Below are positions 489-21,300 of a stretch of DNA of 29,897 bases, piece after piece. Origin of the DNA: a virus. Every line of letters begins with the position of its first letter. Position 1 is the stretch's first letter. A program made the translations under genes and the position numbers. Location: UHGV virus genome UHGV-1792943. The stretch is one strand, 5' to 3'. The notes beneath the pieces were generated by a model. It was not told the origin of the DNA, made no database searches, and saw nothing but the letters and a program-made list of their open reading frames with translations.

Positions 489-748
489 CAAAATGAACAC
501 TCAGTTAGTGGTATCTGAGAGGGGGGCATTATATTCACTGAATGACGCTTGTGAAGACTCACATGTCATCATTTTGTCCTCAAGAATCAGCTCACATCTT
601 GCGCATTCAAGCGTATTTCTCTTTAAAGCCGTGTTTGGACCATTTTGTTGATACGCGAATTTGGCATCCTCCACGCTCTGAGTGACGAGGTTTACGGACC
701 ACCGGGCCATCATATGCATCCATTTTGTGTGAATGGCATTTAGTCGGG

Positions 749-760
749 AAATAACAAACT
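749..760 (+). promoter_or_regulatory. late-promoter-like conserved element (AAATAACAAACT)
   Basis: One of five related 12-mers placed 38-44 nt upstream of start codons at 802, 4565, 8686, 14801 and 15395. Confidence 0.35.
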
Positions 761-801
761 GGATAAGTTGAAGCCGCGTTAAACGTCATTTCTGGAGGGG
801 T

Positions 802-1128
802 ATGTTTGCAGATTATGAAAATCTGGCTGTAGCAGTCATAACATCCCTGCTGAGTGGAACCGGCGTATTCCTTCTCGGAGTTAGAGACGGGCGCATTTCT
901 GCGTCACTGCTCAACCTCGCGAGTGAATTGTTTACTGCAGTAACTGCCGGGCTTGCGGGGTTTTGGGTGGCTGATAGCTATGAATGGCCGGAAGGCATCA
1001 TTTACTGCGTTGTTCTGATTGCCAGTAACAACGGAAGTGAAATTTTACAGGGCTTGAAGTCCAGAGCTAGTAACGTCTTGAATCTCTTAAGCGTAATAGC
1101 GAGTGGGGGAAAAGGTGGAGAGAAGTAA
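802..1128 (+). CDS. putative holin-like small membrane protein (LydA-like by position)
   Basis: Strong SD GGAGGGG before the ATG; 108 aa with about three hydrophobic helices; first gene of the operon. Confidence 0.5.
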   Translation: MFADYENLAVAVITSLLSGTGVFLLGVRDGRISASLLNLASELFTAVTAGLAGFWVADSYEWPEGIIYCVVLIASNNGSEILQGLKSRASNVLNLLSVIASGGKGGEK

Positions 1129-1574
1129 TGGGTGACTTTGGAAATTATTTCATTTTTATCATGGCATTTGTTGCCGTTATTGACCGTTTCTTATTTCGTC
1201 GCAAGAGTGTTGATATTTTGAGCATTGGCGAAGCTGTAGTGAAAGAGTCTGCTATAGCGTTTCCCGTGTCGCTTCGCGTTAAGCGAAGCTGGGTAAGCAA
1301 TGCACAAATCGAATATTGGTTGCAGGACTTGAAAAATCCATCTGTGGTTATTTCGGGGAAAACAAGACCAGTTGACGCATCAAAACGCGGTGAGAGAGAA
1401 GAATATTTGCTCATCGACACGAAATATCTTGAGCCAGCGAAGTGGGATCTAAAGGTCACATTGACTAACGGTAATTGCCGCCTGAATCCGCTTTATCGCA
1501 TTTTCCCTATCAATGACTGCATAGAACGTCAGTTTATGATTGAAAAGTGTGAAGGAGACTGGAATGTCAAATAA
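1128..1574 (+). CDS. hypothetical protein with N-terminal hydrophobic segment (possible antiholin / LydB-like)
   Basis: ATG overlaps the upstream TAA (TAATG); SD GGTGGAGAG; 148 aa. Confidence 0.5.
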   Translation: MGDFGNYFIFIMAFVAVIDRFLFRRKSVDILSIGEAVVKESAIAFPVSLRVKRSWVSNAQIEYWLQDLKNPSVVISGKTRPVDASKRGEREEYLLIDTKYLEPAKWDLKVTLTNGNCRLNPLYRIFPINDCIERQFMIEKCEGDWNVK

Positions 1575-2181
1575 ATCTAATTATGTTCTTCTTAATTATG
1601 ATGAGTTAAACGAAAAGGGGCTGGCAAAACTCGTCAAAGAAATCGGTAAAGGAGGCTACAAGATAGCGAGGGTGATCCCCGCCAGTAATGGCAGGAAGAA
1701 AGACGGGATCATGACGCGCACGTTTACCCTTATCGGAATCGATGAGCAGACGATGGACGTTCAGGTTAATGATACTGGTGATATTTCTGGTGTAAAACTG
1801 AACGGAAAAATTGTTCCTTTCAAGCCAGTTAAAACGCTGATGGCTTTAGGGCAATCACTGGCTGCTTTATTTAATAAAGGCGCATCATCATTTCAGAAAT
1901 CATTGGCGCGTAAGTTAGCTCGTGCGGCGAAAGATATTGATGATGGGAATAAGAAAATAAAAGGCGTTAAGTCCAATGCGCAGAAACTAGCAGAGGCAAA
2001 GGAATCTCGCGATGCGATCCGCGAGGATATTGAAAGGGCCAAAGAAAAATTAAATCAGGTGCAAGGTAATTCAGACCGCGCAACAAGAGAAACTGAAATC
2101 ATTAGAACCGAGATGGCGCAGGAACTGGCGAAAACTCGCGTATTGAAAGAAGAAATAGCGCGCCTGGAGGAAGATGCATGA
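1564..2181 (+). CDS. hypothetical coiled-coil protein
   Basis: The internal ATG at 1564 has SD AAGGAGA 7 nt upstream, preferred over the track start at 1540. The C-terminal half is rich in charged heptad-like repeats. Confidence 0.55.
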   Translation: MSNKSNYVLLNYDELNEKGLAKLVKEIGKGGYKIARVIPASNGRKKDGIMTRTFTLIGIDEQTMDVQVNDTGDISGVKLNGKIVPFKPVKTLMALGQSLAALFNKGASSFQKSLARKLARAAKDIDDGNKKIKGVKSNAQKLAEAKESRDAIREDIERAKEKLNQVQGNSDRATRETEIIRTEMAQELAKTRVLKEEIARLEEDA

Positions 2182-4103
2182 TAAAGAAACCTATTCGAAT
2201 AAATATCCAGTCCACTTTTGCAGATACGCTCACTGGATATACGCCTAATCGTTGGGTGGCGGAAGATATCACCGAGGATGATTTACTTATCGAGCCTGCG
2301 ACGCTGGAAGATATCGAGCTGGCCTATATGGGCAACGAAATTTTGGTAACTACCAATGAGGCAATGTTCGAAGCTTTAACCACAACAAAATTGCGGTTAG
2401 CGCAAACAATGCGAGCATTTGTCCGGGCGCTTAATCGCGGCCTGAATGGCACTGACATTGCTGCGGGTACGGATGAGGCAGGGGAATATGAAGACGGACG
2501 TAATAGTATCGGTGGGGCAATCATTGGGCGCGTGCGCCGGGTTGCTAATATCCCTGTTGTAACAGCACAAATACCTCTAACCGATGGACAAACGACAAGC
2601 ATAATTTTCCATTCTCCAACCGCAGACGGCACAAGAATTAAAGGGGATGACGAGCTGGTTGCGTTTCAGTTTCTTCTTAACAAAAGAAACGTTACGCATG
2701 TTGTTGCGCCAATCGGTGGGCGTGATGTATCTCTGAGCCAGGTGTGTCAGGCGCTTTCTAACCTCATTGAGCGTAACAGTGCAAAATTCAAAAAAGCAAA
2801 GGAGCGCCAGGACAAAATGAAGGCTGATATTGAGGGGTATCTCAATGAAGCCGACAAGCTGGCAGAAGAACGTTCTGTGCTGATTGAGCAGGTTGAAGAC
2901 GCACAGCGGGGGCTGGCAGAGAAACGCTCAACACTCAATGATATGCAGAATAAATTAGACGCACAAAAAGCCCTTAACGCGGAATTGCAGGCTAAGCGCG
3001 ATAATTTATTGTCAGCTAAGAGCCAAGGAACTAAAGAGCGTGCCTTCAATGATCAACTGCGACACATAAAACATAATCTTGCTACAGAAGGCCAAACAAC
3101 GCTGGATAATGGTGCTGTAGTTAAGTATGTCACGTCAGGCAGTGATAGCTTTGTCACGATTGAGGCACCAGAAGGCAATTTCAGTATTGATGTCAGTGCT
3201 GTTAAAGGTGGGAGTTCAGCGGACGCTGCAACCAAATTACTTAAAGCCTATCGTGAACATAATGCTGATCAATACAAAGTGGATGTGTTGCCGGGCCAGC
3301 CTGAGCCAACTGATCAGCCGCAGCCTGAACAGGAGCCACAACCAGCATCACATCCTGATCCCCTGGAGGTTGGTAAATATCGCTATGCGCTACAATCTCG
3401 CCCGGCGGGTGTTGGTGCGGTTCCTGAAGGAAATAAAGCTGTACTTGACCGTCCTGATCAGGCTGATCCGTATTACGAATATGCTCGTCACGGAATCATT
3501 ACGTATGACCGCAAACTGACAGACGAAGAAGTCAGTCAGTACGAATTACGCTATCTGCCTGATGACGATGAACTGAGAGGGATGGCGAACGAGCTGGTTG
3601 CGTCCAGCATGGTAAAACATATTGATGGCTATGTAGATCTGTTTGGAAGTGACCTGAAAACATTCAAGGCGCAAGTTAAAATTCTTTTCCGCAAAGCGTT
3701 CCCGAACGTGGCATATCCACTTGGTGATGGGGAGAACCTTTTCATTATGGACGTGTATAACGCCCTTCAAAATCATTCAAGCGAAGTAAAAACAGATCCT
3801 GTAGTTGAGCCAGAATCGCAACCTGCACCAGCACCAGAACAGGAGCCGGAGCCAGAAGAAGCGGGTGAATCAGCAAGCGAAGCTGACCAGGAAGCAGATA
3901 AAGCGCTTGAGTACCTGAAATCCGTTCCGGAGCAGTTCACATCCCGCGATCTGACGGTCATAAGTGCTGAACTTGATCATGTGCAGGAAGCTGCAAACGC
4001 TCTTATCAGTGCTGGTCGATATGACGAGAACGAAGCAACTGTAGGTGCAGCCGTTGACTACCTGATCAATATTCTGGCTGAAATTCAGCAGGGAGGTGCT
4101 TAA
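2178..4103 (+). CDS. large virion-associated protein, DarA-like by size and operon position (641 aa)
   Basis: ATGA overlap with the upstream gene; SD GGAGGAAG; two Pro/Glu-rich linkers (PEPTDQPQPEQEPQP and PESQPAPAPEQEPEPEE). Assignment to DarA is by analogy to the P1 darA operon, not by alignment. Confidence 0.5.
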   Translation: MIKKPIRINIQSTFADTLTGYTPNRWVAEDITEDDLLIEPATLEDIELAYMGNEILVTTNEAMFEALTTTKLRLAQTMRAFVRALNRGLNGTDIAAGTDEAGEYEDGRNSIGGAIIGRVRRVANIPVVTAQIPLTDGQTTSIIFHSPTADGTRIKGDDELVAFQFLLNKRNVTHVVAPIGGRDVSLSQVCQALSNLIERNSAKFKKAKERQDKMKADIEGYLNEADKLAEERSVLIEQVEDAQRGLAEKRSTLNDMQNKLDAQKALNAELQAKRDNLLSAKSQGTKERAFNDQLRHIKHNLATEGQTTLDNGAVVKYVTSGSDSFVTIEAPEGNFSIDVSAVKGGSSADAATKLLKAYREHNADQYKVDVLPGQPEPTDQPQPEQEPQPASHPDPLEVGKYRYALQSRPAGVGAVPEGNKAVLDRPDQADPYYEYARHGIITYDRKLTDEEVSQYELRYLPDDDELRGMANELVASSMVKHIDGYVDLFGSDLKTFKAQVKILFRKAFPNVAYPLGDGENLFIMDVYNALQNHSSEVKTDPVVEPESQPAPAPEQEPEPEEAGESASEADQEADKALEYLKSVPEQFTSRDLTVISAELDHVQEAANALISAGRYDENEATVGAAVDYLINILAEIQQGGA

Positions 4104-4471
4104 TGGCTATCTCTGTTTTAGAACGCCTGAAATTAGGTAAAGAGCTATCAGATCTAATGCAGGCGCAGAAAACCGCGCCAGTATTGCAACGCGTCTCAAT
4201 TGGTAAGCAGATTGTTGATGTGATGCTTAAACTGGGGCTTGGGGCTGCGGCCCAATCAGTATCGGATCCGCAGGCGCAGCCAGATACTGTTGCAGGTGAC
4301 ATTCCTAAGATAGTGACAGACTTCCTTGGAGGTGCATTCACAAAGTCCACGCAAATGGAATTTATTGATGCGCTACGTGGGATCTCAAACTATGTAGGCG
4401 AGTTCCTTACGTTGGAACAGGCTAAAGAGCAGACCATAAGCTGGGTGAAAGCCAACGGTTATGCAGGGTAA
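4103..4471 (+). CDS. small protein, DdrA-like by position (122 aa)
   Basis: TAATG overlap with the upstream gene; SD GGGAGG. Confidence 0.5.
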   Translation: MAISVLERLKLGKELSDLMQAQKTAPVLQRVSIGKQIVDVMLKLGLGAAAQSVSDPQAQPDTVAGDIPKIVTDFLGGAFTKSTQMEFIDALRGISNYVGEFLTLEQAKEQTISWVKANGYAG

Positions 4472-4514
4472 TCAAAGGGGCTGAAATGCCCCTTTCACTT
4501 TCCTGTAAGTCCAT

Positions 4515-4526
4515 AAATCACACACT
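4515..4526 (+). promoter_or_regulatory. late-promoter-like conserved element (AAATCACACACT)
   Basis: Sits 38 nt upstream of the TTG start at 4565, after a hairpin at about 4474-4500. Confidence 0.35.
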
Positions 4527-4564
4527 TTTTACACTTCCTGCTTTCTATGTAAGGGGAGTGTATT

Positions 4565-7500
4565 TTGAACAAGTCAGTTACTTCCGCGCTATCCGAAGCA
4601 GCAGACATTAACAGTGTTATTGCGCTGGTTTCTTCATTAGAGAGGCGAGAAACACGCCAGGGGCGCAGTAGTTACGTAGTCACCAGTAAAGGGGCAGAGG
4701 TAAAGACGGCTTTTAAGGTCGTTGATGCCAGCAGTCTGATCATTTCGAACAACCTTGACGGTACGATTAATCCGGCCTTCCCGGAAGAACTCCAGCCACG
4801 TGACCGTACACGGCTATCCAGCAAACTCCAGGTTAACCGTATTGCCTCCAATTTACGCCCGGCACAATTAACGGATTCCGGCATGAGCAGCCACGGAGCG
4901 CCGATAGTTGGTCCGGACAACGTTGTTGAATCCGGCAACGGAAGGAGCATGGGTATCTGGCGTGCCTATGAGCAAGGGCAGGCGGATGAATATCGCCAGT
5001 ACCTGATCGATCATGCAAAAGAGTTTGGTCTGAATCCTGACGACATTTCACAAATGTCTATGCCCGTATTGGTGCGCGAAAGACTCACTGATGTTGATCG
5101 TGCGCAGTTCGCCCGCGATTCAAACATCAGCGATCTGCAAGAGATGGCTGCAAGTGAAAAAGCGTATGCGGATGCGCAATTTCTCACTGAGAGCGTCATG
5201 GCGCTATTTAATCCTTCAGATGATGGGAATCTACTGGCGCGGTCCAATGATGCGTTTATTCGTGCGTTTTTGCGCGAAATAGGTGATACGGCGACGGCAG
5301 GTTTGCTTACAGCCGATGGGCGTCCAACGAAACAACTTATCGACCGCATCCAGAATGCAATTTTTGCCAAAGCGTACAAGGATGAAAGGCTTGTTCGGTT
5401 GGTGGCGGAAGAGCCAGATCCGGAAATGCGTAACATCCTTACCGCATTAAATACGGCAGCCAGCGATTTTGCGCAAATGCAGTCGCTTTCAGGTGATGTT
5501 CACCATGACACGGTAACCGGACTGGTAGACGGTATAGAGCAATTGAATGGTCTGGATAAACAGGCTATTGCCGCGCTACAGGAAGCAATTAACCTTGTTC
5601 GTGAAGCAAAAGATAACGGTCAGGCAGTAGAAGAGGTGATCGCACAGCGTGGATTGTTTGGAGATAGCACTCCGGAAGCAGAAGCGCTTGCTCTGTTTAT
5701 TGTTGCCAACAACCGAAGCGCTAAGCGAATGGGGGCAGCTTTCAAGAAACTGGCGCAAAAAATTAACGATGAACTTATTCACCAGCAACAAGCGTTAGGC
5801 GATATGTTCGGCGGCGGAGATGTCGATCTGCGTAGCATTTTATCTGCCGTTTCTGATGAAATTGAGGCTGAGTATGGCGAAGGTAAAGGGCTTAATTTCG
5901 CCATGTTCGAATCAGTTTCGGGAGATGTCGAACCATACATTTCAAAGCTAATTGCTGATGCGACCAGCGTGGAGGACTTGATCCGAATCGTGAAGGCGTC
6001 AGAAAAAATTAAGGAGTCCGCAAAAAAAATAAAGCGCAATGTATTTTTGGAACTTGGTTTTTATATTCGCAATGTCACCGTTAATGAGATTAAGGCGTGG
6101 GCTAAACGTTATGGATACAGCAACGCTGTGTTAACAACGATGTTATTGTCTTATCAACGCAGCAATTTTTATGCTAACGCACTGCGTGACGCGATTGAAA
6201 AAGGAGATGAAGCTCCTTCACTCGCAGATGAAAGAAATATTGATTGTGACATTGAAACGTTTTGCAATATGTCAGAAGAAGGCGTGCCCGCTGAACAATT
6301 TATACGTGTTTTACATAATGCAGCAAAACATATTCCTGATGACTTTAGCATTGATGAATTGCGCAATGGTTGTCTTGTTTGGTTAGGTAACTATTTAAAA
6401 TCTCCAGCGTCTATTGCAGAGAAAACAGCTTTAAGATTTAGAAAGGAAATGAATAAAGCTGGAAGCGCAGAAGAGATGGTGCGCATAATCCAAAATACTT
6501 TGAAGTTATTCAAAAAGAGCTTGCATAATATCAACGATATTATGGCGGCTGGTAGGAAAATAACAGCCAGCGTCGGAGTTAGCTCCGAACTAACGGCAGA
6601 GGAGATCGCTGATGCGTATATTGAGACACTTGTCAGGCTTAAGGAGATAGTGGAATTAGCAGAGCATTCCTCATATTACGGAATCAAGGAGCGCGTTGAC
6701 TTTACTATAGAACAAATCAATAAAGTTAGGTCAAATAAGGAAAAACTCACTGACTACCTTGCTGAGGTTTTGCACCAGAATGATCATGGGATTGGATATG
6801 ATCTGAAAAAAATGCTTGTTTTTAATCTGGACATACCGGAAGACTTGCAAGCAGAATTATATGAAATAGCTTCATTAACACGTGGACAAAAAGCCTATCC
6901 TAATGCGCTTGAAAATGTAGTACATAAAAAAGTCAGAGCCGCATTTGACATGATTCTTGAATCGTCAAATGTGTCACATGACCAGTCTAAGGAATGGAGT
7001 CGTGGGATTGCTATTTCTGATGAAGCAGAGCAGTTAAGTGGTCACGATAATGAAACTTTCTCCCGTAAAGCATACAGTATTCGCGAGACAATTGAAAAAG
7101 CCTATATTATTTCAGGAGGGACTTTATCTACATTAAAAAATATTAACCACAAGAACAATGTTCGTGCTTTTGCAAGTCGAAATGGGAATATAACAATTGA
7201 TGCTAATAGTGATCATGAGCGTGTATTATGGCATGAAATAGGTCACCATATAGAACATTCAAATCCCCATCTATTGGAGAGGGCCAAAGCCTTCATTAAA
7301 TCAAAAACTAACGGTAAAGTTTCTTATCATAATATTGGTAGCCGTGGCAGTGCTGAGTATTTGGTGCGAACCGACCTAAGTCATGGATATATGTCTAAAA
7401 TTTATATGGAAAATACGGTAAGTTCTGTCAGCGGCAGATTTATATCAAAGCCACCTGCATTAAGCAATTGCAGGGCGACTGAGATTTTTTCTATGGCCTT

Positions 7501-7606
7501 GCAGATGTATGCCGATCCTGAGCAGGCGACTAACTCTGTATTAAACAATGACGGCGTGCTGGAATTTTTCTTGGGATGTATGAAGGAGTTGCAAAATGAA
7601 GTATAG
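4565..7606 (+). CDS. 1013-aa putative internal virion protein (DdrB-like by position) with ParB/Srx-like N-terminal motifs and a C-terminal HEIGH zincin-like motif
   Basis: TTG start with SD AAGGGGAG. N-terminal region reads ELQPRDR ... GAPIVGPDNVVESGNGRSMG (ParB-type spacing). HEIGHHIEH is encoded at 7232-7258. Confidence 0.6.
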   Translation: MNKSVTSALSEAADINSVIALVSSLERRETRQGRSSYVVTSKGAEVKTAFKVVDASSLIISNNLDGTINPAFPEELQPRDRTRLSSKLQVNRIASNLRPAQLTDSGMSSHGAPIVGPDNVVESGNGRSMGIWRAYEQGQADEYRQYLIDHAKEFGLNPDDISQMSMPVLVRERLTDVDRAQFARDSNISDLQEMAASEKAYADAQFLTESVMALFNPSDDGNLLARSNDAFIRAFLREIGDTATAGLLTADGRPTKQLIDRIQNAIFAKAYKDERLVRLVAEEPDPEMRNILTALNTAASDFAQMQSLSGDVHHDTVTGLVDGIEQLNGLDKQAIAALQEAINLVREAKDNGQAVEEVIAQRGLFGDSTPEAEALALFIVANNRSAKRMGAAFKKLAQKINDELIHQQQALGDMFGGGDVDLRSILSAVSDEIEAEYGEGKGLNFAMFESVSGDVEPYISKLIADATSVEDLIRIVKASEKIKESAKKIKRNVFLELGFYIRNVTVNEIKAWAKRYGYSNAVLTTMLLSYQRSNFYANALRDAIEKGDEAPSLADERNIDCDIETFCNMSEEGVPAEQFIRVLHNAAKHIPDDFSIDELRNGCLVWLGNYLKSPASIAEKTALRFRKEMNKAGSAEEMVRIIQNTLKLFKKSLHNINDIMAAGRKITASVGVSSELTAEEIADAYIETLVRLKEIVELAEHSSYYGIKERVDFTIEQINKVRSNKEKLTDYLAEVLHQNDHGIGYDLKKMLVFNLDIPEDLQAELYEIASLTRGQKAYPNALENVVHKKVRAAFDMILESSNVSHDQSKEWSRGIAISDEAEQLSGHDNETFSRKAYSIRETIEKAYIISGGTLSTLKNINHKNNVRAFASRNGNITIDANSDHERVLWHEIGHHIEHSNPHLLERAKAFIKSKTNGKVSYHNIGSRGSAEYLVRTDLSHGYMSKIYMENTVSSVSGRFISKPPALSNCRATEIFSMALQMYADPEQATNSVLNNDGVLEFFLGCMKELQNEV

Positions 7607-7889
7607 CATTGTGAGTCCCGCTGGGATTAGAGGGATTGTTGAATGCTCTGATGACGGCACATTGCGTATATTTGAAGGCGATATTTCGGAAGAAAATATT
7701 GCGCAAGATTTACGCTTTATCAACACAAATTCCGCAATGGGGATCGTGAATACCATTCATGCCGATGGGGTGTTTGTTCTGCGGAGCCTGGAAACTGTTG
7801 GCTGGGAGGTTGAGTGGCCAGAGGTGGAAGGAGATCCTGACGACGAAGACGATACTGGCGAATCATATCAAGACATTGATGTGAATTGA
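7596..7889 (+). CDS. small acidic protein, last gene of the operon (Hdf-like by position)
   Basis: Overlaps the upstream stop by 11 nt; acidic C-terminus; followed by a strong terminator. Confidence 0.5.
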   Translation: MKYSIVSPAGIRGIVECSDDGTLRIFEGDISEENIAQDLRFINTNSAMGIVNTIHADGVFVLRSLETVGWEVEWPEVEGDPDDEDDTGESYQDIDVN

Positions 7890-7902
7890 TATGATTGATA
7901 AT

Positions 7903-7925
7903 CCCGCCGTCAGGCGGGTTTTTTT
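7903..7925 (+). terminator. rho-independent terminator
   Basis: cccgcc-gtca-ggcggg followed by TTTTTTT. Confidence 0.8.
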
Positions 7926-8187
7926 AGCGTGGTGTAAGAATAAATTCAGGATGCTCTCCAGCAAGCAATAACAGGTACTCAAATTCACCAGCCATAAGGC
8001 GTCTCGGTTTATTTCTATCTTCTTTGAATTGCCAAGCCCGGAGTTGATACCCCATTTTGTGGGCTAACTCCGTTTGCGTTAGCCCCATTCGCTGGCGGAT
8101 TTCAATTATGGTTTCCGGGGTGTTTGGTGGGAGTTGTTTCACAATATGCCCTTTGCCAATGCTGTGATTCGCAACGAAGTATATCAT
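7924..8187 (-). CDS. XRE-family HTH DNA-binding protein
   Basis: HTH segment MGLTQTELAHKMGYQLRAWQ; lies 12 nt downstream of the preceding minus-strand ORF. Confidence 0.55.
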   Translation of the reverse strand: MIYFVANHSIGKGHIVKQLPPNTPETIIEIRQRMGLTQTELAHKMGYQLRAWQFKEDRNKPRRLMAGEFEYLLLLAGEHPEFILTPR

Positions 8188-8199
8188 CGTTGAATCGAT

Positions 8200-8502
8200 T
8201 CACAGAGCTGCGCCGAACAGACCGCAGCATGGCATCCCTTCATCACAGTACCTGGCCCATTCTTTTTGGCATTCTTCTGTTTGCGCGTATTGGCTTAACG
8301 CGTCATCCAGCATATCCCAGGCCTTATAGGAATCCTCTGCAACGCTAAACAAAGTCCTGCCTTCCCGGCTTAGAATTTGCAGATTGTAAATGTTTTCATT
8401 GCTCAGACATGCGTGGCTGATATGCATGTAAACCGACCATGCAGGAACTCGATTTTTGATAGCAAGTTGGTGTAATTTGGAGTTAATTAAAGAGCTTTTC
8501 AT
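8200..8502 (-). CDS. hypothetical protein, upstream partner of the HTH gene
   Basis: Start taken at the internal Met preceded by SD GGAGA (the track ORF extends to 8553); about 100 aa; no recognisable motif. Confidence 0.4.
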   Translation of the reverse strand: MKSSLINSKLHQLAIKNRVPAWSVYMHISHACLSNENIYNLQILSREGRTLFSVAEDSYKAWDMLDDALSQYAQTEECQKEWARYCDEGMPCCGLFGAAL

Positions 8503-8633
8503 GGAATTTCTCCGCAGCAAAGTGGTCAACTTTTTTAATCTTAATACGCACAATGTGCATATTCAAGTTTTATTCTTCACTTTGTTACGAGAGGGGCCAG
8601 CCAATATTTCTAGTTGAAAAGATCCATCATCAA

Positions 8634-8685: not shown

Positions 8686-10371
8686 ATGGCAACGAAAGAC
8701 AAAAACAAAGGCTTTCTGTCGGCATTGAAGAAAGCCTTCAACAGTGGCGATGTCACGCCTGCTGATCCGGTCGTTTTTACAAGCGGTCATAGTGTCGTTG
8801 CGCGTTCTGGTCTGTCTGCTTTACGTCCGGGTATCCTGGGTGGCAATAGCGATGGCATGACAAGCGCGGCAGATACAGTATCAATTTCGGCAGAACTGCC
8901 CGGCGACCGCCTGCAAAAATACAACATACTGGAGACGATGGCGAAAAGTCCGACTATCTCCACAGCATTAAACATTCACATTGCGCATTCTCTGGCTCCA
9001 TCAAAAAAAACAGGCCTCGCATTTATTCTCGCTCCGAAAAATGGGGCAGATAAGGAGGCTGTAAGTCGATGTGAGGAATTGACCGCTGATTTAAGCTCAA
9101 TGATTAATGATGGCCTGCCATCGTGGGCCATGATCATGGCTATTTTCGGTGTGTCGTATATCCGTCCATATGCAGAGCAAGGGAAGGGGATAACTGGAAT
9201 TGAGTCGAGCTATTACACGCTCCCTCATTTCGTTCAGGAGTTTTATCGCGGTAGCCAACTTGTCGGATTCAGCGGTGATTACATTCTGGATACGCATACT
9301 TTGCGCAGAGTTATAACCGAACCATGGAATCTGGTTTCCATGAAAAACCCGTACTGGACGCCTCAGCATAATGTAATGCCAGTAACTTACGGCACTAAAG
9401 GCTATTCCTTGCTTAGTGAACAGCAGGACAAGCCGTTAATGGAGACGCAGAACTACGGTACGTCATTTCTTGAATACAGTTATGAACCCTACCTGAATTT
9501 ATGTGCCGCGCTTGCTGCGCTGAAAGCAACGCGAAACAACGCTGCAAAAATTGATCGCCTGATTGCACTCACAACGAACACGATAGATCCGGTAAATGCG
9601 GCGAATTATACGCGCGGGGTCAGCCAGGCACTGAAGCGTCATAGCGACCTCGTAGCGCAACGGTCGATTAATTCTAATGCTCTCCCATCTGTACTTAACC
9701 ATCTGATACCCGTCATGGGGGATGGGAAGAACGGGATCACCATTGATACGCAATCTATACCCGCAGATATCAGTGGTATCGAAGACGTTATGTTTCATCT
9801 CCGACAGCTCGCGGCAAGCCTCGGTATTGACGCAACAATGCTTGGCTGGGCTGATCAGATGAGTGGTGGACTTGGAGAAGGCGGTTGGCAGCAAACAGCT
9901 ATCCAGGCCGCCTTACGCGCGAACTGGATCAGACAGGCCGCCCAGCGGACTATTTATCGGCTTCATGACATTCACCTCGCTTATAAATACGGGAAGGTTT
10001 ACACCGAAAAAAACCGTCCTTATGACGTGCAATTCAACTCAATGAACACAGCTATCCAGGAAGAGGAAAACCGAGAGCTGGATGCGCGCGCCAACTTCGT
10101 AGCTGTCATCTCGCAAATAATGGACCAGATCCAGAACAACCCGAAACTGGCGGGTAGCGACGCGTTTATGCGTTATCTGTTCACCGAACAGCTTTGTATC
10201 GACGATGACACTCTCAACGTAATGATCAAAGAGTTTAAAGCGAATGAATCAGAGCAAAACAACGAGCATGGTATGTACGAATCCGCGCCGTTGTCGTCCG
10301 GTGACGATCCGGAAAACTGGACGCAAGAACAATTAATCAACTTTGCAAAATTTGTGATGAGCAATAATTAA
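8686..10371 (+). CDS. putative portal / head structural protein (561 aa)
   Basis: Size and position immediately upstream of a protease/scaffold-like gene; no decisive motif seen. Confidence 0.4.
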   Translation: MATKDKNKGFLSALKKAFNSGDVTPADPVVFTSGHSVVARSGLSALRPGILGGNSDGMTSAADTVSISAELPGDRLQKYNILETMAKSPTISTALNIHIAHSLAPSKKTGLAFILAPKNGADKEAVSRCEELTADLSSMINDGLPSWAMIMAIFGVSYIRPYAEQGKGITGIESSYYTLPHFVQEFYRGSQLVGFSGDYILDTHTLRRVITEPWNLVSMKNPYWTPQHNVMPVTYGTKGYSLLSEQQDKPLMETQNYGTSFLEYSYEPYLNLCAALAALKATRNNAAKIDRLIALTTNTIDPVNAANYTRGVSQALKRHSDLVAQRSINSNALPSVLNHLIPVMGDGKNGITIDTQSIPADISGIEDVMFHLRQLAASLGIDATMLGWADQMSGGLGEGGWQQTAIQAALRANWIRQAAQRTIYRLHDIHLAYKYGKVYTEKNRPYDVQFNSMNTAIQEEENRELDARANFVAVISQIMDQIQNNPKLAGSDAFMRYLFTEQLCIDDDTLNVMIKEFKANESEQNNEHGMYESAPLSSGDDPENWTQEQLINFAKFVMSNN

Positions 10372-10384
10372 CCGGAGGGAAATA

Positions 10385-11383
10385 ATGCAATCACTGAATA
10401 CCGTTACGGATCGCTTCTCCCTGGTAGAGAAAATCCGCAAACACACACCTCAGAACAATCGCAATTACGTTATCCAGTCGGTACGAGACACATTCAACTC
10501 GCCAGAAACAAAAGAGCGTATCGCACTGGGTGAGATGTATGGTTATTACGGTCATGGTCGCCGGGCGATGCACTATAACAAAACGAAAAGCCTGGACTTG
10601 CCGGAAGTCTCTGTTGTGATGGTAGATGGGAAGCCTGTTGTATTGGAGAACGTGCCGTCAAACAGGACTATCGACATTTCAATTGACGACAACGGCATTG
10701 TTACCCATACACAGGAAATACTGGATACGGACACCGGACGTATTGTTCAGGGTATGATTAATTCTGGCGCAGGTGGTTGGTCATGGGCTACATCTGGTCC
10801 AGATTACTCTGTATCCCTGGTAAAGTCTTTTCACGGTTTTGATTACGTAACTGTGCCTAACTATATCAGCCTCGACAAGAAAAGCCTGATGCTTGAATCA
10901 GCAGAAGAACGCGACGCGGCGATTCATGCGGCACTTATCGAACAAGGTTTTACCGATAATGCTGCTACGGATCTGGTTCACCACTTTTCAGCAATGAAGA
11001 GTCAGCAAGCCATATTCGAATCAGCACAACGTGAAGTTCTGGAGTCGGAACTGATACATCTTGAAGTGGAAAATATGCAGCTTCGCGACAAACTACGCGA
11101 CCAGGCCGCGATGATGGAAAGCCAGGGGGAGAACGCGAAGAAATGCCGCCGTATTTTGCGTGATGCTATCCAGGAAATGCCTGTTTTTATCAGCGCAGAA
11201 CAGCGCCGGGCGCTCTGCCGTATGCAGTCAGAGGATGATGCACGCATTGTCGCAGCGATGCTTGAATCCCTGGGGGCTAATGCCACTTATGGTCTGCCAA
11301 TATCAGCCAATAAACAACAAGAAATACCGGTGAAAGAGAACAAGACGGTGACTCCGCTGATCTTTGTGTCTAAGAGGATGTGA
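10385..11383 (+). CDS. putative head maturation protease or scaffold protein (332 aa)
   Basis: SD GGAGGG; coiled-coil C-terminal half; position after the portal-like gene. Confidence 0.35.
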   Translation: MQSLNTVTDRFSLVEKIRKHTPQNNRNYVIQSVRDTFNSPETKERIALGEMYGYYGHGRRAMHYNKTKSLDLPEVSVVMVDGKPVVLENVPSNRTIDISIDDNGIVTHTQEILDTDTGRIVQGMINSGAGGWSWATSGPDYSVSLVKSFHGFDYVTVPNYISLDKKSLMLESAEERDAAIHAALIEQGFTDNAATDLVHHFSAMKSQQAIFESAQREVLESELIHLEVENMQLRDKLRDQAAMMESQGENAKKCRRILRDAIQEMPVFISAEQRRALCRMQSEDDARIVAAMLESLGANATYGLPISANKQQEIPVKENKTVTPLIFVSKRM

Positions 11384-11582: not shown

Positions 11583-12545
11583 GTGAGTATTTTAAATTCA
11601 GTTTCAGTTACTTTCAACACTTCTGAGTATAAAAACAACACTGAATACCACAAAAAAATCAAAGGTCATCAGTTGAGTTTTTTTGCTCGTCATAGCGGTT
11701 TTCTTTCCCCTTCACATAGCGCCATTATTGCCGAGTTCGCCAACCTGGCAGGAGCTACCGATGAATACATGATCCGTCGCTCATATGCGGATATGTCCGA
11801 GATTACAGGACGCAGTATTTCTACTGTGCGCCGGGCATTTGCCGAAGCGACGAAGTGCGGAATGCTTGTTAAGCAGCATCAGGTAGCGAATAACAATGCT
11901 CAGGTGTGTAACGTGTACCGGTTTACAACACAATTTCTCCACTTCATTCATGTAGCAATGGAGATAGGGAGTAAGCAGGGCATCAAATTTGCCAACGCCA
12001 CAAAACTGGTTAAGCAGTTGATTTCAAAGGTTCGTTATTTTTTTGAAACTGGGAACCCCCTGTTCAAATTGAACAAGTCCCCCCATGTTCAAAATGAACA
12101 GCCAATAGAAAATAAGAGTCACTCTATAGCCAAAAGAAGAGAAAGATCATGCGCGGTTCAGCCAAAGGCTTCACCAGCAGATAGTTCTCAAGCGGATAAT
12201 GGGGGGCTGGATAAAAAACCAGTAACCAGGGAAGAACATACCAACCACTGCCTGGCGGCGGCAAAAGCGAGAGCTGCAAAGCGTCGTTCAGATGAGGGGC
12301 ACGCAAAACGGCAGGCTCTGTATCGTACCGCTGAAAAGCTGGCAAAAAAATTTGCATGGATACGTAGTGCCGCTACAGCAGTGAATAAGCCTAAACAATC
12401 CAGTGCCCTGGATTTCTCAATGGATTATTCTGGCTCCCAGGGGTGTGCAACCATTGGTGAAGCCTTTGACCTGATGAAACAGCGTGGCTATCGGTCTGAA
12501 TTTGACCGGGAAGACTGGTCAATTCCGGAGGGCTTTCGGGGATGA
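11583..12545 (+). CDS. putative DNA-binding protein, possibly a replication initiator (RepL-like by context)
   Basis: GTG start, exact start uncertain. HTH-like segment MSEITGRSISTVRRAFAEA; basic C-terminal region; two 15-bp palindromes lie inside the coding sequence. Confidence 0.4.
   Translation: MSILNSVSVTFNTSEYKNNTEYHKKIKGHQLSFFARHSGFLSPSHSAIIAEFANLAGATDEYMIRRSYADMSEITGRSISTVRRAFAEATKCGMLVKQHQVANNNAQVCNVYRFTTQFLHFIHVAMEIGSKQGIKFANATKLVKQLISKVRYFFETGNPLFKLNKSPHVQNEQPIENKSHSIAKRRERSCAVQPKASPADSSQADNGGLDKKPVTREEHTNHCLAAAKARAAKRRSDEGHAKRQALYRTAEKLAKKFAWIRSAATAVNKPKQSSALDFSMDYSGSQGCATIGEAFDLMKQRGYRSEFDREDWSIPEGFRG
12061..12101. repeat. two near-identical 15-bp palindromes (TGTTCAAATTGAACA and TGTTCAAAATGAACA), each preceded by a C5-7 tract, inside the 11583-12545 CDS
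   Basis: Read directly at 12061-12075 and 12087-12101. Confidence 0.8.
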
Positions 12546-15394: not shown

Positions 15395-18300
15395 TTGAGG
15401 GGGCTTCCTTTGGACAAAATAATTGATTCAATTAGCCAGGCCACCAGCATTGGGGCGCTGATTGAAATTGTTAGTCGGTTGCATAAACCGCGAGCTGTAG
15501 TGACCTTTGGCGTTAAGAAAGTCGATGGCGTCAGTATTCAGAAAACACGCCGGGCAGCAAACAACGCCGCAGTAAATCTTCTTAATTCCCTTCCGCCTGG
15601 CTTCGATGGGGCGAAATTAACTGACGAACAGCGCCAGATTCTTGCCGGGTATACCGGTGAAGGCGGCCTGACAGATGGTGAGGGCAGCCAATACGAATAC
15701 TATACGCCACAGTTTATGGCAGAAGGTATATGGGATCTCTTCGGCGACTACGGTATTGATAGCGGTCACGTACTGGAACCGTCAGCAGGCACAGGTATTT
15801 TCCAGGAGACAAAACGGCAGGGCATGATAATGACCAGCGCCGAACTGTCTCCGATCTCCGGTCGAATAAACCAGCTTTTGCACCCGGAAGATGATGTGAA
15901 TATCGGGGCGTTTGAGGCGCTGGCGGCGAAAGATGCAATGTATGACCACGCAGTTGGTAACGTACCGTTTGGCGAAGGGCGTTCCGGCGTCGCCGGGCTT
16001 GATCCGGCATATGCAAACGAGAAGAACGTTGGCAATTATTTTGTGCTGCGCACGATCGACAAGGTTAAGCCTGGTGGACTAATTGTATTGGTGGTGCCGA
16101 ATGGCATGACCGATGGTACGAAATACAAAAAATTGCGCGATAAAGTCAGCCGTAAAGCGGAATTTTTGGGCGCGCATCGTATGCCTTCTGGTACGTTCAG
16201 CGAATCCGGTACAGATACCGTGGTGGACGTATGGGTATTGCGTAAACACCCGGAAACCTTCCTGGAGATGATCCCCGACACGGATGATGCAACGCTCAAA
16301 TCGGCAAACGTCCTTTGGGATACCTTCCTCAAAGGGAAATGGTTTACAACCGAAGGGAAGCGATTTGTTTACGGCGACATGGAACGCACCAGCTTCCGCA
16401 ATACCCTGGTGGTGAAAAAGGACGGTCGTGTATCCAATGAGTCGATGAAAACCGCGTTATCACGCCGCTTTGAAAGCCGTATTAATTGGGATTTGCTCGG
16501 AGTAACTACCCAGGCATGGCAGGGCGCAAAAGTAGGGGATAAGCGTCTTGTAGGCGGTATCTGGCATGAGTTTGATGGCCTGAAATGGGTTAAGGACACG
16601 ACAACCAAATCCTCCGCGCTTGATGTAAGTCGATATGGTGTTTCGACGTTTGGCGATCTGCAGATCGCGTTCCAGTCAACAAACGGGATTCTGGCTTTGT
16701 CATGGGACCAGATATCGGCGATCGCGTCCGACTATCCATCGGTTGTCAGTGATGAAGTGGCAGCAATGATTCGCTTTGCTGGCAAACAGCGAGAAAAAGA
16801 CAGGGAGCGCGTTATGCGCGGTGCGTTGATAGGGCAGTTGATCAACAAGGCACTTGATTTGCGTAACCTGGGGGTGAACGTTGATGACAAACTGGCAGAT
16901 GCATCCCGCCTGGCGGCAGCAGAAGTTGCGAAGTATGGACCACCGCACGCGATTAAGCTGAATGGGCTTGCTGAAGCTGGCGCTAAAAACTGGATGACGT
17001 TCACTGGCAATGTGAAACAGGATGGTTCCACTTCTGACCTTCTGGCAGGGCGACTTGATGTAACGGATGGTGCTGCCGGTATTGACTTTACACGTCCGGA
17101 ACAAGTGATAGCACATCTTTTCAGTGATGTAGCCCTTAATCCTATAACGCTGGGCGACTTTCGTGAGGCGTTTGCTGGTGAACTGCCAGAGGACGACGAC
17201 GCGGCCCTTGAATACCTGGCGAAATTTGATGATATCGCTATTGATGGGTATGGCTGCCTGCTACCGATGGACCGCGCCACCAGCGGCGATATTGTAACCA
17301 AAACAGCATTGCTGGTGGGCTGGCGTGATGCATCAACAGGTGAGCAGAAAGCGAACTTTGAGCGTCAGTTGGCGAAAATCGAAGAGAAACGCATTTTCAC
17401 GCCACTAAATAAAGTCACCGTTAATCTGAACGCCCGCTGGCTGGATCGCCGCTTGATAAAAGAGTTCCTGGCAGAGCAGGGCTATGACGAGTTTAAGTAC
17501 ACAGAACCTGATCTGAAGATCGTCGATGGCATTCTGGTATCTCCGGACGATTACGAAGGTAAGGACGGGGTATTTACCGGCTATCAGCTACGAACCGTAA
17601 ACGGCAAAAACGGGAATGAGTTCAAGAAGGCCAACAATAAAGACGGCTTCCTGAACCAGTTAGAAAACTACCTGAACGGTGTTAAACCGCGTGGGCAGAA
17701 CGCTAACGAGTACCTGGATAAAATTGCTCAACTGGAAGTTAGCTTTAACGACTGGTTACGCACCCACCCGCAGGCGGATCAGATAGCCCGTGACTATAAC
17801 GACGCATTCAATGGCTTCATTCCGTTCACGCACTCTAACGCACCGCTTGGCCTGGAAGGGATTAGTGGAAAGCGCATTCCTCTGACTTATCAGAATGAAG
17901 AAGTTCGTCGCTTGTCAGAAGATGGGCGCGGCATCATGGGATTTGGTACCGGGCTGGGTAAAACCACGACCGCGCTTGCGCTTGAGGCGTATAACTTCGA
18001 AACAGGTCGTACTAAACGCACGTGTATTGTTGTTCCGAAGGCGGTTTATCAGAACTGGTATCACGAGGCACAGAGCTTCTACAGTGCTGATGCCTTCGCC
18101 AATATGATGTTTATCGGTCTGGATGAAGTTCGTGATGACAGCGGAAATATTCTGACCGCTCCGGTGCTTGATGAAAATGGCGAACCCCGCCTCGACAGTA
18201 ACGGGCAGCCTCTTACCAGAAATGTTGTGAAAGAGTCCGCCAGCGCCGTTATCGTTCAGCGCATGAACATGATCCCGTCGTCAAATTGGCGAACGGTCAT

Positions 18301-21300
18301 CATGACAAAAGAACAATTCGCGTCTATCCCGCTACGAGAAAAAACCATCGAGGAGAACTCACAGCAAGCTGTCTTTAATGCTGTGGAAATGGGGCGTCTT
18401 GACCTGGCGTCTGGTAAACATCGTGATGCGCAGAAGAAGAACAAGATTAAGGATCAGGCCGCGAATACCGGTACAACGAAGAAGCAGAATATCCCGTACT
18501 TTGAGGATATGAACTTCGATAGCGTGATTGCCGACGAGGGGCATAACTACCGCAACTCCTTTAATGCCGGGCGTGAAGCGGGACAACTGGCATATTTGCC
18601 TAACCCGGCAGTATCCAAGATGGCCCGCGACATGGCTGTAAAAGCTGCGTACATGATGAAACGCAACAACGGGCGTGGTGTAGTCATGCTGACGGCAACA
18701 CCGCTGGTGAACAGTCCGATTGATGCCTTCAACATGCTGTCTACAGTCATTCCGCAGGAAGAGTGGATGCGCATGGGCATCATTACGCCTGATGATTTCG
18801 TTCGTGTGTTTGGTAAAACAGCCACAGTTCAGGTCCAGAAAATTTCCGGGGAAGTGGAAGAGAAGCAGGGGCTGGTTGGCTTCCAGAACCTTGATGGCCT
18901 GCGTGGTATTTTCCATCGCTGGACTACTCTGAAGACTGCTGCGGACGTCGGGGCGACGGTTAAAATCCCTGATATTGTCGAGAATACCTTGCAGATCCCG
19001 ATGACAGGGGAGCAGGAGGCTGCTTATGAAGAGCTTCGTAAGCGTGCACAGGAGTTAAGTAGTAAAGATGCGCTGACGGTTGATGAAAACGGGCATATCA
19101 CAAACGAAAAACCGGATGATTTCATCTTCTCCATCATCCGCGACATGGATAAGGTTGCTATAGATCCGGATCTGTATGCCAGTGCGATTACATTCCAGTT
19201 CCCCGTTGAGCTTGCAGACAAGGTAAAAGCTATTGCTGATGCCCTGCCAAAAGTAGCTGGCGGTAAAGTGGCAGATGATGCAGACGAGGCCGAAGAAGAC
19301 GGCGCTGGTGGGCTGGTTAGTACGCGCACCAGTAAGGTAGTGAAGACCACCTTTAGTGAACATCCGGCGCATGTTGAAATACGTGCCAGCATTGAACTGG
19401 AAGCTGAAATACTGAAGGCCATTGCTGCCGCCGGGATTGATATGCAGCAGGTATCACACCCAATCCCGCCGAAGTATGCCGCGCTGATCGAAAACCTTCG
19501 TGAAGGTCTGAAGAACGGTAAACAAATTGTCTTCATTGATGAAAAAGCCCAGCACCAGAAGCTGCGCCGTATTATCGCCAGTGCACTGCAAATGCCGGAG
19601 CAAGAGATAGGCATTATCAATGCGACGACCGTTAGCCAGGCTGGCGGCATCAAGCTGAAGAAGGTGAATAAGCCGACTGAACCTACTCCGAATAAAAACG
19701 GTGAATACAAAGAAGGGGCATGGGAAACCTACTACAGCAAACTTGCCCAATATGAGGATTATCTCTCAGCTAAAAATGATGCTGGCCTTGAGGGTATGGA
19801 AGGCATTGCCGCCGACTATAACGAAGGGCGCACGCGCATAATTATCTGTAACAAGAAGGCTGAAGTAGGTATTAACCTGCATATCGGGACAACCGATATC
19901 CACCACCTGACACTACCCTGGACACCAGCCAGTATCGACCAACGAAATGGGCGCGGTGCGCGCGTAGGTTCACCGCAAGAGAAGGTCAATGTTCACTACT
20001 ATTGTGGCAAAGGCACATTCGACGACTTCCGTCTGGATACGCTGAAACGTAAGAAAGACTGGATCAAGATGGTGATGACCTCCGACATGTCAGAGATCGC
20101 CAATGGTGATGCGGATGATGCTGATGAACGCGCCATTATGCTGGCGGCAAACCCGGAAGAACGCCGCGCAATCATGGCTCGCCAGGCGCAAGAGCGTGAA
20201 GAACGTCTGAAACTGAAAGCACAGCGCGAGGCCAACAATGCTCTCGATATCTACCTGAAAGCGGCAAACGCCGCTGGAAAAGATATCGGCATGATGGAGA
20301 CAGAACTGAAAAGCGCGATGGAACAGATAGAGTATTACCAGCGAAATCTTGACGACCTGATAAAAGCAGGTACGAACAGGAATGGGCAAAAATTCGCGCT
20401 TGAGCAGTTGAGTAGCTACAGAAAACGTGCGCGGGTGCTGCGGTTTGCGATCACCAGGGCAAAAGACGCGGATACCATAATGAAACGCTCTCGTGGTGAT
20501 GTGGAGCGCGCTATTAAGTCTGGTGTGCTGGATATCAGTATCGATGTTATTCAGAACCCACAGGAATATATGCGCACTGACAAGAATATCCTGTTGCATA
20601 AAGGTAGTTATTACCGTGCAGTCATTGATGATCGCGAAACAACAGCGATTGTCCGGGTGGAAAAAATTGACGGTGAAAAAGCACAATACCTCTGCCGTAT
20701 CGCCTGGCTGGATAGAGCAAGTCGTTACGCTCGATCACCGGGGTCAATCGTTACATTGCCGTTTGACTCTGTGATTGAAGCGGTAACTTTTGAAGAGGGG
20801 GTAGCTGAATCGCGCGCAACGGCTGCGCGTGGTGTTCAGTGCCACCAGCTATCAACAATACTTACTCGCGATCAGTTCTATGATGCTATTCGCAATGGGG
20901 TAATGAATGTTATTGCTGGTAAACCTGGTAATGCATGGGGCGGTGGGTCAGCTATTAAATACTGGGCATATCGCACAGATGATGGTCAGATCGCGCTGTC
21001 ATCGGCCTATGATGGCGTGATAGGCCAAAAAATCGGGCGAGCATCGGATATAGCACCTGAACGATGGATATATCCAGATGGCAACGATGAGGCGCTGAAG
21101 CGTGAAGTGGCAAAAATACAAGCCAGTGATAACCCGCTGAATATCGTGGACGGCGAGGGATTCCTCCAGGCATTGTATGGGTATGATTACATCCAGGGAA
21201 TGCAGGCATGGGGCGCACAGGCAACGATGGATGATGTTGTCCAGGAGTTCGAAAACTGGATGGCTGGGCGTGGTCTGTCAGGTCGTTCGCTTAATAAAGT

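Follow-up and report, generated by a model that had tools for sequence, protein, structure and literature searches.

The 1013-residue protein encoded by the open reading frame at 4565..7606 (+) of the window, i.e. the whole 29,897-nucleotide stretch of DNA analysed here, is the counterpart of P1 DdrB, a "defence against restriction" protein that is packaged into the capsid, and a role in the virion would follow by orthology. The window itself is a P1/D6-like plasmid prophage. The best overall explanation, to which we assign a probability of roughly 0.8, is that of a P1/D6-type DdrB, a two-module polyvalent internal head protein that would be self-processed and whose ParB module would be delivered. 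This reading draws on the orthology, the operon context, both folds, the conservation of catalytic-type residues and the modularity established here, and on features carried over by analogy from the P1 literature, namely virion location, processing to ~76 kDa, dependence on DarA/Hdf and a role in DarB incorporation, which presumably apply to the present protein.

The reading frame, which starts with TTG and includes the stop codon in the ORF listing of the window, is preceded by a GGGGAG Shine-Dalgarno sequence 6 nt 5' of the TTG, and this start agrees with P1 DdrB, the two N-termini being aligned. The gene proposed in the initial annotation therefore exists on the (+) strand, as indicated by the ORF listing, the Shine-Dalgarno sequence and the P1 alignment. 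The tblastn comparison with P1 DdrB covered residues 4-1011 (44% identity, E = 0), the pairwise alignment gave 47% identity over the full length, and positions 10-994 of the phrog_2299 profile matched residues 12-1012, i.e. end to end; an NCBIfam search with the 1013-residue protein retrieved no model. We regard its assignment as a DdrB orthologue, with a ParB/Srx and a metallopeptidase domain, as nearly certain.

In the darA operon (lydA-lydB-hdf-darA-ddrA-ddrB-hxr), ddrB occupies the sixth position; all on the (+) strand, the lydA holin gene (802-1128), lydB (1128-1574), hdf (1540-2181) and ddrA (4103-4471) were assigned by PHROG and by synteny with D6 and P1 annotation, darA (2178-4103) by PHROG, the Pfam families DarA_N and DarA_C and synteny, and ddrB by the evidence given above. 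The final gene, a 97-aa ORF at the hxr position (7596..7889, +; phrog_2292), overlaps the ddrB stop as P1 hxr does, and is followed by an intrinsic-terminator-like hairpin recognised in the sequence (7903..7925, +; CCCGCC-GTCA-GGCGGG, then seven T), which is probably the end of the operon. Portal, pro, repL and darB lie 3' of the operon, and the whole order matches that of D6 and P1. Alignment of the region upstream of lydA with the P1 LPdar late promoter gave no clear conservation.

The N-terminal module comprises residues ~30-453. The N-terminal ~40 residues (4565..4687, +) form two short helices (2-11 and 15-26) and the first strand in the full-length structure model and, by analogy with the 30-residue N-terminal capsid-targeting signal carried by DarB (PMC9024508), may be a candidate capsid-targeting segment. 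They are followed by a DdrB-like domain of the ParB/Srx superfamily (residues 42-173, 4688..5083, +), matched by Pfam PF18763 with an E-value of 9.7e-42 (142.4 bits, gathering threshold 27.6; positions 2-120 of 121 of the profile). The initial annotation had recognised ParB/Srx-like motifs at the N-terminus, in PRDRTRLSS (residues 78-86, nt 4796-4822) and GAPIVGPDNVVESGNGRSMGIWRA (residues 111-134, nt 4895-4966), and this is supported by the Pfam match, by the invariance of Arg127 in all 13 full-length relatives (13/13) and by the position of the GxxR motif, GNGR (residues 124-127, 4934-4945, +), at the junction between a strand (120-123) and a helix (125-136) in the full-length model. Gln77, Pro78 and Arg79 are invariant or nearly so, and this QPR triplet, upstream of GxxR, is placed as in box I of chromosomal ParB. 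The canonical ParBc Pfam model gave no direct HMMER match to the protein, and Foldseek, run against the PDB with the ParB domain inside the whole full-length model, gave nothing but generic helical-repeat matches (E > 0.1).

The ParB domain is always accompanied by an all-alpha extension (residues 174-453, 5084..5923, +), delimited by the P1 alignment, by helices 179-449 and by a phrog_14693 match over residues 129-452. The extension is highly conserved with P1 DdrB, and in phage relatives (Acinetobacter, Aeromonas, Pseudoalteromonas and others) the match is confined to residues ~32-435. In these sequence comparisons the ParB domain and the extension make up one conserved N-terminal module.

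Chromosomal ParB is a CTP-dependent sliding clamp, a property found after the 2017 analysis of polyvalent proteins. DdrB retains both motifs of the nucleotide pocket, QPR and GxxR, and its ParB module could conceivably be a nucleotide-gated DNA clamp of the same kind, loading on the packaged genome after release from peptidase and linker inside the head, although we consider this improbable. If true, a clamp carried into the cell with the genome would explain why Dar protection acts only in cis, on DNA from the same capsid, and the long, peptidase-containing forms and the short D6 forms would be two delivery routes for one clamp.

The module ends at a hinge and recombination junction (residues 439-458, 5879..5938, +), defined by the blastn comparison with phage D6, by the length of the D6 protein and by pLDDT values, which fall below 50 over residues 439-458 of the full-length model. 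Nucleotide similarity to D6 ends at nt 5898. The N-terminal 44% of ddrB is of D6 type, with 95% nucleotide identity to D6, and the short DdrB of this phage (orf25, D6_25; 454 aa) is 97% identical over residues 1-452 (tblastn), with the same flanking genes. D6 has neither linker nor metallopeptidase and no gene at the hxr position, and carries instead a DUF4145 gene together with a further small ORF; a search of D6 for a separate copy of the linker or peptidase detected none. This natural 454-aa form is found in D6 and most D6-like plasmid prophages, from which it follows that the ParB module needs no peptidase in cis.

Downstream of the hinge lies a variable linker (residues 454-779, 5924..6901, +), all-alpha in the model, which is matched by the closest relatives only and whose identity to P1 is low; its pLDDT is mixed and partly low. 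Weak Pfam matches in this region, to SRP19 (24.2 bits, cut-off 25), ANAPC5, Band_7_1 and others, were rejected, and we attribute them to noise from helical composition, since the region is unconserved even with respect to P1. The full-length model (mean pLDDT 71.6, pTM 0.44) is of too low confidence for domain packing to be interpreted.

The C-terminal domain (residues 780-1013, 6902..7603, +) is a zincin by fold and motif only, and probably a gluzincin-type metallopeptidase, with M34-type enzymes as the most similar. Its structure model is confident (pLDDT 94) and resembles solved zincins in overall fold, the nearest being PPEP-2/-3 and anthrax lethal factor, which are M34-type gluzincins, and also MtfA (M90). 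The HEIGHHIEH motif (residues 890-898, 7232..7258, +) is located in helix 885-899 of the models. Homologues of the domain were collected with HMMER over 1.8 billion cluster representatives (164 proteins), the best 150 of which were aligned to give ~155 domain segments. His890, Glu891, His894 and Glu897 are kept in 153-154 of these segments and His895 in ~75%; position 898 is unconserved and mostly occupied by tyrosine or phenylalanine. We predict His890 and His894 to be zinc ligands and Glu891 the general base, with Glu897 as a conserved acidic residue at +3 from the second histidine. In the same set, a group of residues 3' of HExxH is also conserved (Glu931, Tyr942, Lys945, Tyr947 and Thr972-Glu973; 7355..7483, +), with Glu931, Tyr942 and Glu973 invariant and Tyr947 and Lys945 nearly so. 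Glu973, which opens the core helix 974-980, is the predicted third zinc ligand by analogy with the gluzincin pattern (PMC5512222), Glu931 being the other candidate, and either Tyr942 or Tyr947 is a candidate catalytic tyrosine.

A lone HExxH is weak evidence, since 4.2% of shuffles of the 1013-residue sequence contain one (HExxHxxE, 0.3%), and it is the conservation in homologues that places the motif beyond chance. Such frequencies, together with the non-essentiality of P1 ddrB (PMC10695390), are what could be said for HExxH and GxxR being incidental motifs in a structural head protein, an explanation that is effectively refuted, and to which we give a negligible probability, in view of the PF18763 match (E 1e-41), the ~99% conservation of the motif in the segments and the confident zincin model. 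The zincin-like motif of the initial annotation is accordingly present, conserved and placed in a zincin fold, and both motifs proved conserved when homologues were considered (Arg127 in 13/13; His890, Glu891 and His894 in 153-154 of ~155).

No Pfam family, MPTase-PolyVal and the anthrax lethal factor family included, matched residues 780-1013 at E-values up to 1, and in 70 homologues the peptidase domain likewise fell outside every Pfam model. The partner domains identified by Pfam in these homologues (ddrB-ParB in 17 of 70, Phage_Mu_F in 3, InPase in 2, Portal_Mu and DarA_N in 1 each) are all phage-head or polyvalent-protein domains. Sequence searches of PDB chains with the single protein, a C-terminal profile and a full-length profile gave nothing usable, and a word-indexed search for homologues of the C-terminal domain recovered one fragment only, compared with 164 proteins by exhaustive HMMER. 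The peptidase is a widespread phage-head domain, with 164 cluster representatives and several PHROGs of unknown function, and has no Pfam model.

On the preferred reading of a two-module DdrB, the protein would be made late, as an internal head protein of the Dar system, and its recruitment into the prohead would depend on DarA/Hdf; the peptidase would then cut its own polypeptide inside the linker, the N-terminal ParB module would remain in the head and aid DarB loading, and this module would finally be ejected with the DNA, where it may bind or hydrolyse nucleotide and/or act on DNA. P1 DdrB, described as a ParB domain plus a C-terminal MPTase, is cut to ~76 kDa ahead of packaging, and the paper that describes this predicts autoproteolysis (PMC5512222). 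It belongs to the P1 virion proteome, where it is listed as aiding DarB addition to the capsid, with a peptide coverage in virions of 59.5%, a value that does not in itself tell which part is packaged (PMC9024508), and the Dar proteins enter the capsid in a set order, following DarA/Hdf, and are ejected together (PMC12810830). We infer autocatalytic cleavage, its location in the linker and an enzymatic activity of either domain; a literature search returned no report of NTP binding or hydrolysis, nuclease or peptidase activity for any DdrB. The self-processing step taken by itself has a chance somewhat short of even.

Cleavage might instead be the work of Pro, which would process DdrB as it does the capsid protein, the zincin then having another role, for example as a removable assembly chaperone or targeting domain, or as a peptidase acting on other Dar proteins. 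Pro of P1, a T4-type prohead protease similar to T4 gp21, cuts the major capsid protein at E120/S121 and could just as well yield the 76-kDa form; DarA is also proteolytically processed in head maturation. The pro gene (10385..11383; ORF and PHROG) is close to ddrB within the window, Glu-containing helices are abundant in the linker and would offer many possible sites, and the MPTase-containing region of the N4 vRNAP is needed for encapsidation without cleavage (PMC5512222). Nevertheless, the near-perfect conservation of the general-base glutamate and the metal ligands argues for catalysis over a purely structural role, and we consider this explanation rather unlikely, a little more so than the one that follows.

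The metallopeptidase may instead be an injected effector, with or without the ParB module, with a host target, for instance a type I restriction subunit or another defence protein, as its substrate. This was left open for polyvalent MPTases by Iyer et al., who note that N4 vRNAP, ArdC and TraC1 are transferred without processing (PMC5512222). The nearest folds, PPEP-2/-3 and anthrax lethal factor, are secreted endopeptidases or toxins acting on foreign substrates, and all of the catalytic-type residues are strongly conserved. The metalloprotease domain of plasmid ArdC is also reportedly needed to evade the hsdRMS system of the recipient. However, P1 DdrB is shortened to ~76 kDa before packaging, so that the N-terminal fragment, if it is the one retained, would lack the peptidase (PMC5512222), its listed role in DarB incorporation is one in assembly (PMC9024508), and D6-type phages manage without the peptidase domain. 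We therefore judge an injected peptidase unlikely, and retain the self-processed head protein as the preferred reading.

The combination of ParB and metallopeptidase domains in one head protein, which the initial annotation had considered unusual, is supported but not new. Iyer et al. had already reported this architecture, virion packaging and a proposed self-processing for P1 DdrB in 2017 (PMC5512222), and the 2004 P1 annotation labels it a 'possible metallopeptidase'. As a discovery it carries little weight, the gene being recognisably orthologous to P1 ddrB, after which the Pfam ParB family is named. What is added here is minor, i.e. the lack of a Pfam model for the peptidase, its M34 likeness, the variable linker between the two modules and the D6 short form. 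D6-type prophages that are otherwise nearly identical carry either the long or the short allele, which offers a ready comparison for the contribution of peptidase and linker, and DdrB is a reasonable experimental target with regard to the packaged fragment and to any antirestriction contribution beyond DarB entry.

Compared with P1 DdrB (P1_gp022, YP_006491.1; 995 aa against 1013), operon position and three-part layout are alike, the ParB module is highly conserved, and WHE[IL]GHH[IL]E, Glu931, Tyr942, Tyr947 and Thr-Glu973 are shared, whereas the linker (~454-800) is barely alignable; nucleotide similarity to P1 (~66%) was detected in a single stretch, and the ddrA-ddrB spacer, 12 nt long in P1, here has 93 nt with a hairpin. 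With ParB/Srx NTPase-nucleases (chromosomal ParB, Osa, GmrS and sulfiredoxin) DdrB shares an alpha+beta core and a GxxR with invariant arginine, while the helical extension (174-453) is specific to the DdrB lineage; unlike partition ParB, DdrB has no ParA partner, no HTH and no dimerisation domain.

Polyvalent proteins are defined by at least two unrelated effector-type domains from a recurring set, joined in a single phage or plasmid polypeptide in a late or virion context, and we find ddrB-ParB and MPTase domains in a product of the late darA operon; P1 DdrB is itself a named example (PMC5512222). Polyvalent MPTases, as described by Iyer, Burroughs, Anand, de Souza and Aravind (2017), have a HExxH helix, a variable insert and a later helix with the third-ligand glutamate, and likewise occur in phage-head proteins with ParB, MuF, InPase and DarA-N domains. 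The MPTase-PolyVal Pfam model derived from that work misses the DdrB peptidase, and the DdrB clade differs in having glutamate, not aspartate, three residues after the motif, and in its own signature of R-A, Glu931 and Y-x-x-K-x-Y.

The protein is encoded by a single long ORF in the window (4565..7606 on the plus strand, 1013 codons), whose TTG start codon is credible because the first residues of the product match the start of P1 DdrB in pairwise alignment; a Shine-Dalgarno sequence, GGGGAG, also ends 6 nt 5' of it. In tblastn searches, residues 4-1011 showed end-to-end similarity (44% identity) to DdrB of P1, P7, SJ46, RCS47 and others, and pairwise alignment with P1 DdrB gave 47% identity, the N-terminal 450 and last 230 residues being well conserved and the middle poorly. 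The gene order, with names backed by PHROG and Pfam matches, is that of phage D6: lydA (802-1128), lydB (1128-1574), hdf (1540-2181), darA (2178-4103), ddrA (4103-4471) and ddrB, then portal (8686-10371), pro (10385-11383), repL (11583-12545) and a darB-size ORF of 2283 aa (15395-22246). The D6 record lists holin lydA, lydB, hdf, darA, ddrA and ddrB, followed by portal, head protease, repL and darB, and describes the gene matching ddrB as "similar to P1 gene ddrB". Similarity and gene order together identify the protein as the DdrB orthologue of a P1/D6-like plasmid prophage, belonging to the DdrB orthologue group, to PF18763 and to the polyvalent-protein class. The initial annotation had placed it in a virion operon. 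For P1, DdrB was identified among the proteins of purified virions, with 39 peptides giving 59.5% coverage (Gonzales et al., 2022, PMC9024508). In P1, ddrB is non-essential (PMC10695390).

Just 3' of the hxr-position ORF (7596-7889) lies a strong intrinsic-terminator-like hairpin, CCCGCC-GTCA-GGCGGG (7903-7918), followed by T7 (to 7925), which probably marks the end of the darA operon. Immediately 3' of the ddrA stop (~4474-4500), in a ddrA-ddrB spacer of 93 nt, as against only 12 nt in P1, lies another hairpin, G+C-rich, AAAGGGGC-TGAAAT-GCCCCTTT, with a T-rich tract behind it; this hairpin is absent from the terminator-scan output for the window and could attenuate ddrB expression. Two minus-strand ORFs separate the operon end from the portal gene: 7924..8187, with a weak HTH_3 match and, at its position in plasmid NZ_CP117014, a shorter CDS annotated as an XRE-family regulator, and 8200..8553, without Pfam or PHROG family; the pair might form a small regulatory or toxin-antitoxin-like module. 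A 141-aa ORF, rich in Ser, Ala and Arg, runs antisense within ddrB (5011..5436, minus strand) at the relative position of P1 iddB, to which it is 64% identical across 98 aa. It matched no family and is probably a by-product of the strong conservation in the sense frame, yet it is open in both phages.

The ParB-type N-terminus proposed initially was borne out. PF18763, the "ddrB-like ParB superfamily domain" that takes its name from DdrB, covers residues 42-173 (E 9.7e-42), and the strings PRDRTRLSS and GAPIVGPDNVVESGNGRSMGIWRA are found at residues 78-86 and 111-134. R127 of the GNGR motif is the same in all of 13 full-length relatives, among which Q77-P78-R79 vary little or not at all. In the full-length structure model GNGR sits between strand 120-123 and helix 125-136, the strand-to-helix position that the nucleotide-binding GxxR occupies in ParB/Srx proteins (Iyer et al., 2017, PMC5512222). 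A conserved all-helical extension, to about residue 450, always follows the ParB domain on its C-terminal side, and in relatives from Acinetobacter, Aeromonas, Pseudoalteromonas, Alcaligenes and other phages the tblastn match is confined to residues ~32-435.

Sequence searches of Pfam, NCBIfam and the PDB gave no match covering the C-terminal domain (residues 780-1013). An HExxH motif occurs in 4.2% of shuffles of the DdrB sequence, and HExxHxxE in 0.3%, so that HExxH alone proves little, and conservation and fold are decisive. When 1.84 billion cluster representatives were searched exhaustively with HMMER, 164 proteins were retrieved at E <=1e-3, nearly all of the best 150 having HExxH at the aligned position. 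Across ~155 aligned domain segments R867, A868, H890, E891, H894, E897, E931, Y942, K945, Y947 and T972-E973 are invariant or nearly so. Of the other His residues in HEIGHHIEH (890-898), which was initially read as metallopeptidase-like with extra His and Glu, H895 is present in about three quarters of the segments and H898 shows no conservation. From an alignment of 30 sequences, AlphaFold2 models the domain confidently (mean pLDDT 94.2, pTM 0.91), with HExxH carried by helix 885-899; its nearest folds are toxin-type endopeptidases. Chance origin of the motifs is ruled out by the Pfam E-value, motif conservation, the confident model and the zincin-type fold matches.

In other zincins an acidic residue three positions after HExxH orients a His ligand, a role that E897 probably has here, and M34 peptidases have a catalytic Tyr, a part that may be played by Y942 or Y947. 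Invariant E973 opens a later helix (974-980), past a variable insert; this layout is that of polyvalent-protein MPTases, in which a Glu borne by the second C-terminal helix serves as the third zinc ligand (Iyer et al., 2017, PMC5512222). By analogy, H890, H894 and E973 are predicted to be the metal ligands and E891 the general base. Partners of the domain in 70 homologues were ddrB-ParB (17), Phage_Mu_F (3), InPase (2), Portal_Mu (1) and DarA_N (1), and several PHROGs of unknown function are built around the domain, as is one PHROG annotated "minor head protein". Some relatives consist of linker and peptidase only, or of peptidase alone (e.g., P0003, 500 aa; P0004, 272 aa), and may be either separate genes or contig-end fragments; some giant ones, such as P0033, P0036 and P0038 (1367-2398 aa), carry two or three copies.

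The linker between the two modules (454-779) is modeled as helical, with partly low confidence, and aligns among the closest relatives only. D6 is collinear with the window from 747 to 5898 and again from 8634, and the break falls at DdrB residues ~445-453, the last P1-conserved stretch (FESVSG), in the low-confidence hinge 439-458; the left mosaic junction (5898) coincides with a protein domain boundary. In megablast, D6 matched only the first 1334 nt of ddrB (95% identity), and of the 118 E. coli, Salmonella and Shigella plasmids that matched, only four contain the whole gene (97-99% identity). In D6 and most D6-like plasmids, DdrB is 454 aa long, ending at the break, and a DUF4145 gene comes next. 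Relative to D6, 5899-8633 is a mosaic replacement: 2.7 kb with linker, peptidase, hxr-position ORF and the two minus-strand ORFs stand in place of 1.1 kb with the DUF4145 gene and a small ORF. In tblastn, no counterpart of linker or peptidase was found elsewhere in D6. On these grounds the ParB module is a self-sufficient unit. The near-identical plasmid NZ_CP117014.1 has no CDS across the ddrB interval (5001-8042 of locus L004) in the PLSDB gene table, while the search summary nevertheless gives 'hypothetical protein' for the matched stretch; NZ_CP035876 has two hypothetical proteins there. Some annotations may split or mis-call the long allele, perhaps owing to its TTG start.

P1 DdrB was described as cut to a 76-kDa form ahead of packaging, and autoproteolysis was proposed, the N-terminal ParB fragment being predicted to be the packaged one and its ParB domain suggested to have nucleotide sensing/degradation or DNase activity (Iyer et al., 2017, PMC5512222); DdrB is also listed as an aid to DarB addition to the capsid (Gonzales et al., 2022, PMC9024508). 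In the best-supported account, DdrB is an internal head protein made late, and its peptidase would cleave its own polypeptide inside the variable linker, an inferred self-cleavage to which we assign a probability of 0.4-0.5; the ParB module would then stay in the head, help DarB loading and leave with the DNA on ejection. Alternatively, the peptidase, whose nearest folds are of toxin type, may itself be an injected effector acting on host proteins, or processing may be due to Pro, the T4-type prohead protease. As the short D6 allele demonstrates, the ParB module can do without a peptidase in cis, which weakens models with obligatory processing and does not discriminate between these two alternatives. 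That the module is a nucleotide-gated DNA clamp riding on the ejected genome, accounting for cis-only Dar protection, seems to us quite improbable.

The analysis bears out the initial interpretation in all substantive respects. The combination of ParB and metallopeptidase, called unusual, is in print as a textbook case of a polyvalent protein. P1 DdrB is a "possible metallopeptidase" in GenBank, one P1-like phage record gives "putative metallopeptidase" and another "DdrB-ParB domain-containing protein", and Iyer et al. (2017, PMC5512222) based the DdrB-like ParB family on P1 DdrB and recognised a zincin-like MPTase at its C-terminus; a literature search that did not extend to Piya et al. (2017) yielded no biochemical work on either domain. 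What is added here is small: a structural placement for the peptidase, its conserved signature residues outside HExxH, its absence from Pfam's models and the junction between long and short alleles. The long allele is in the minority among D6-type elements in PLSDB (4/118), unlike in P1-type phages, where it is the standard form.
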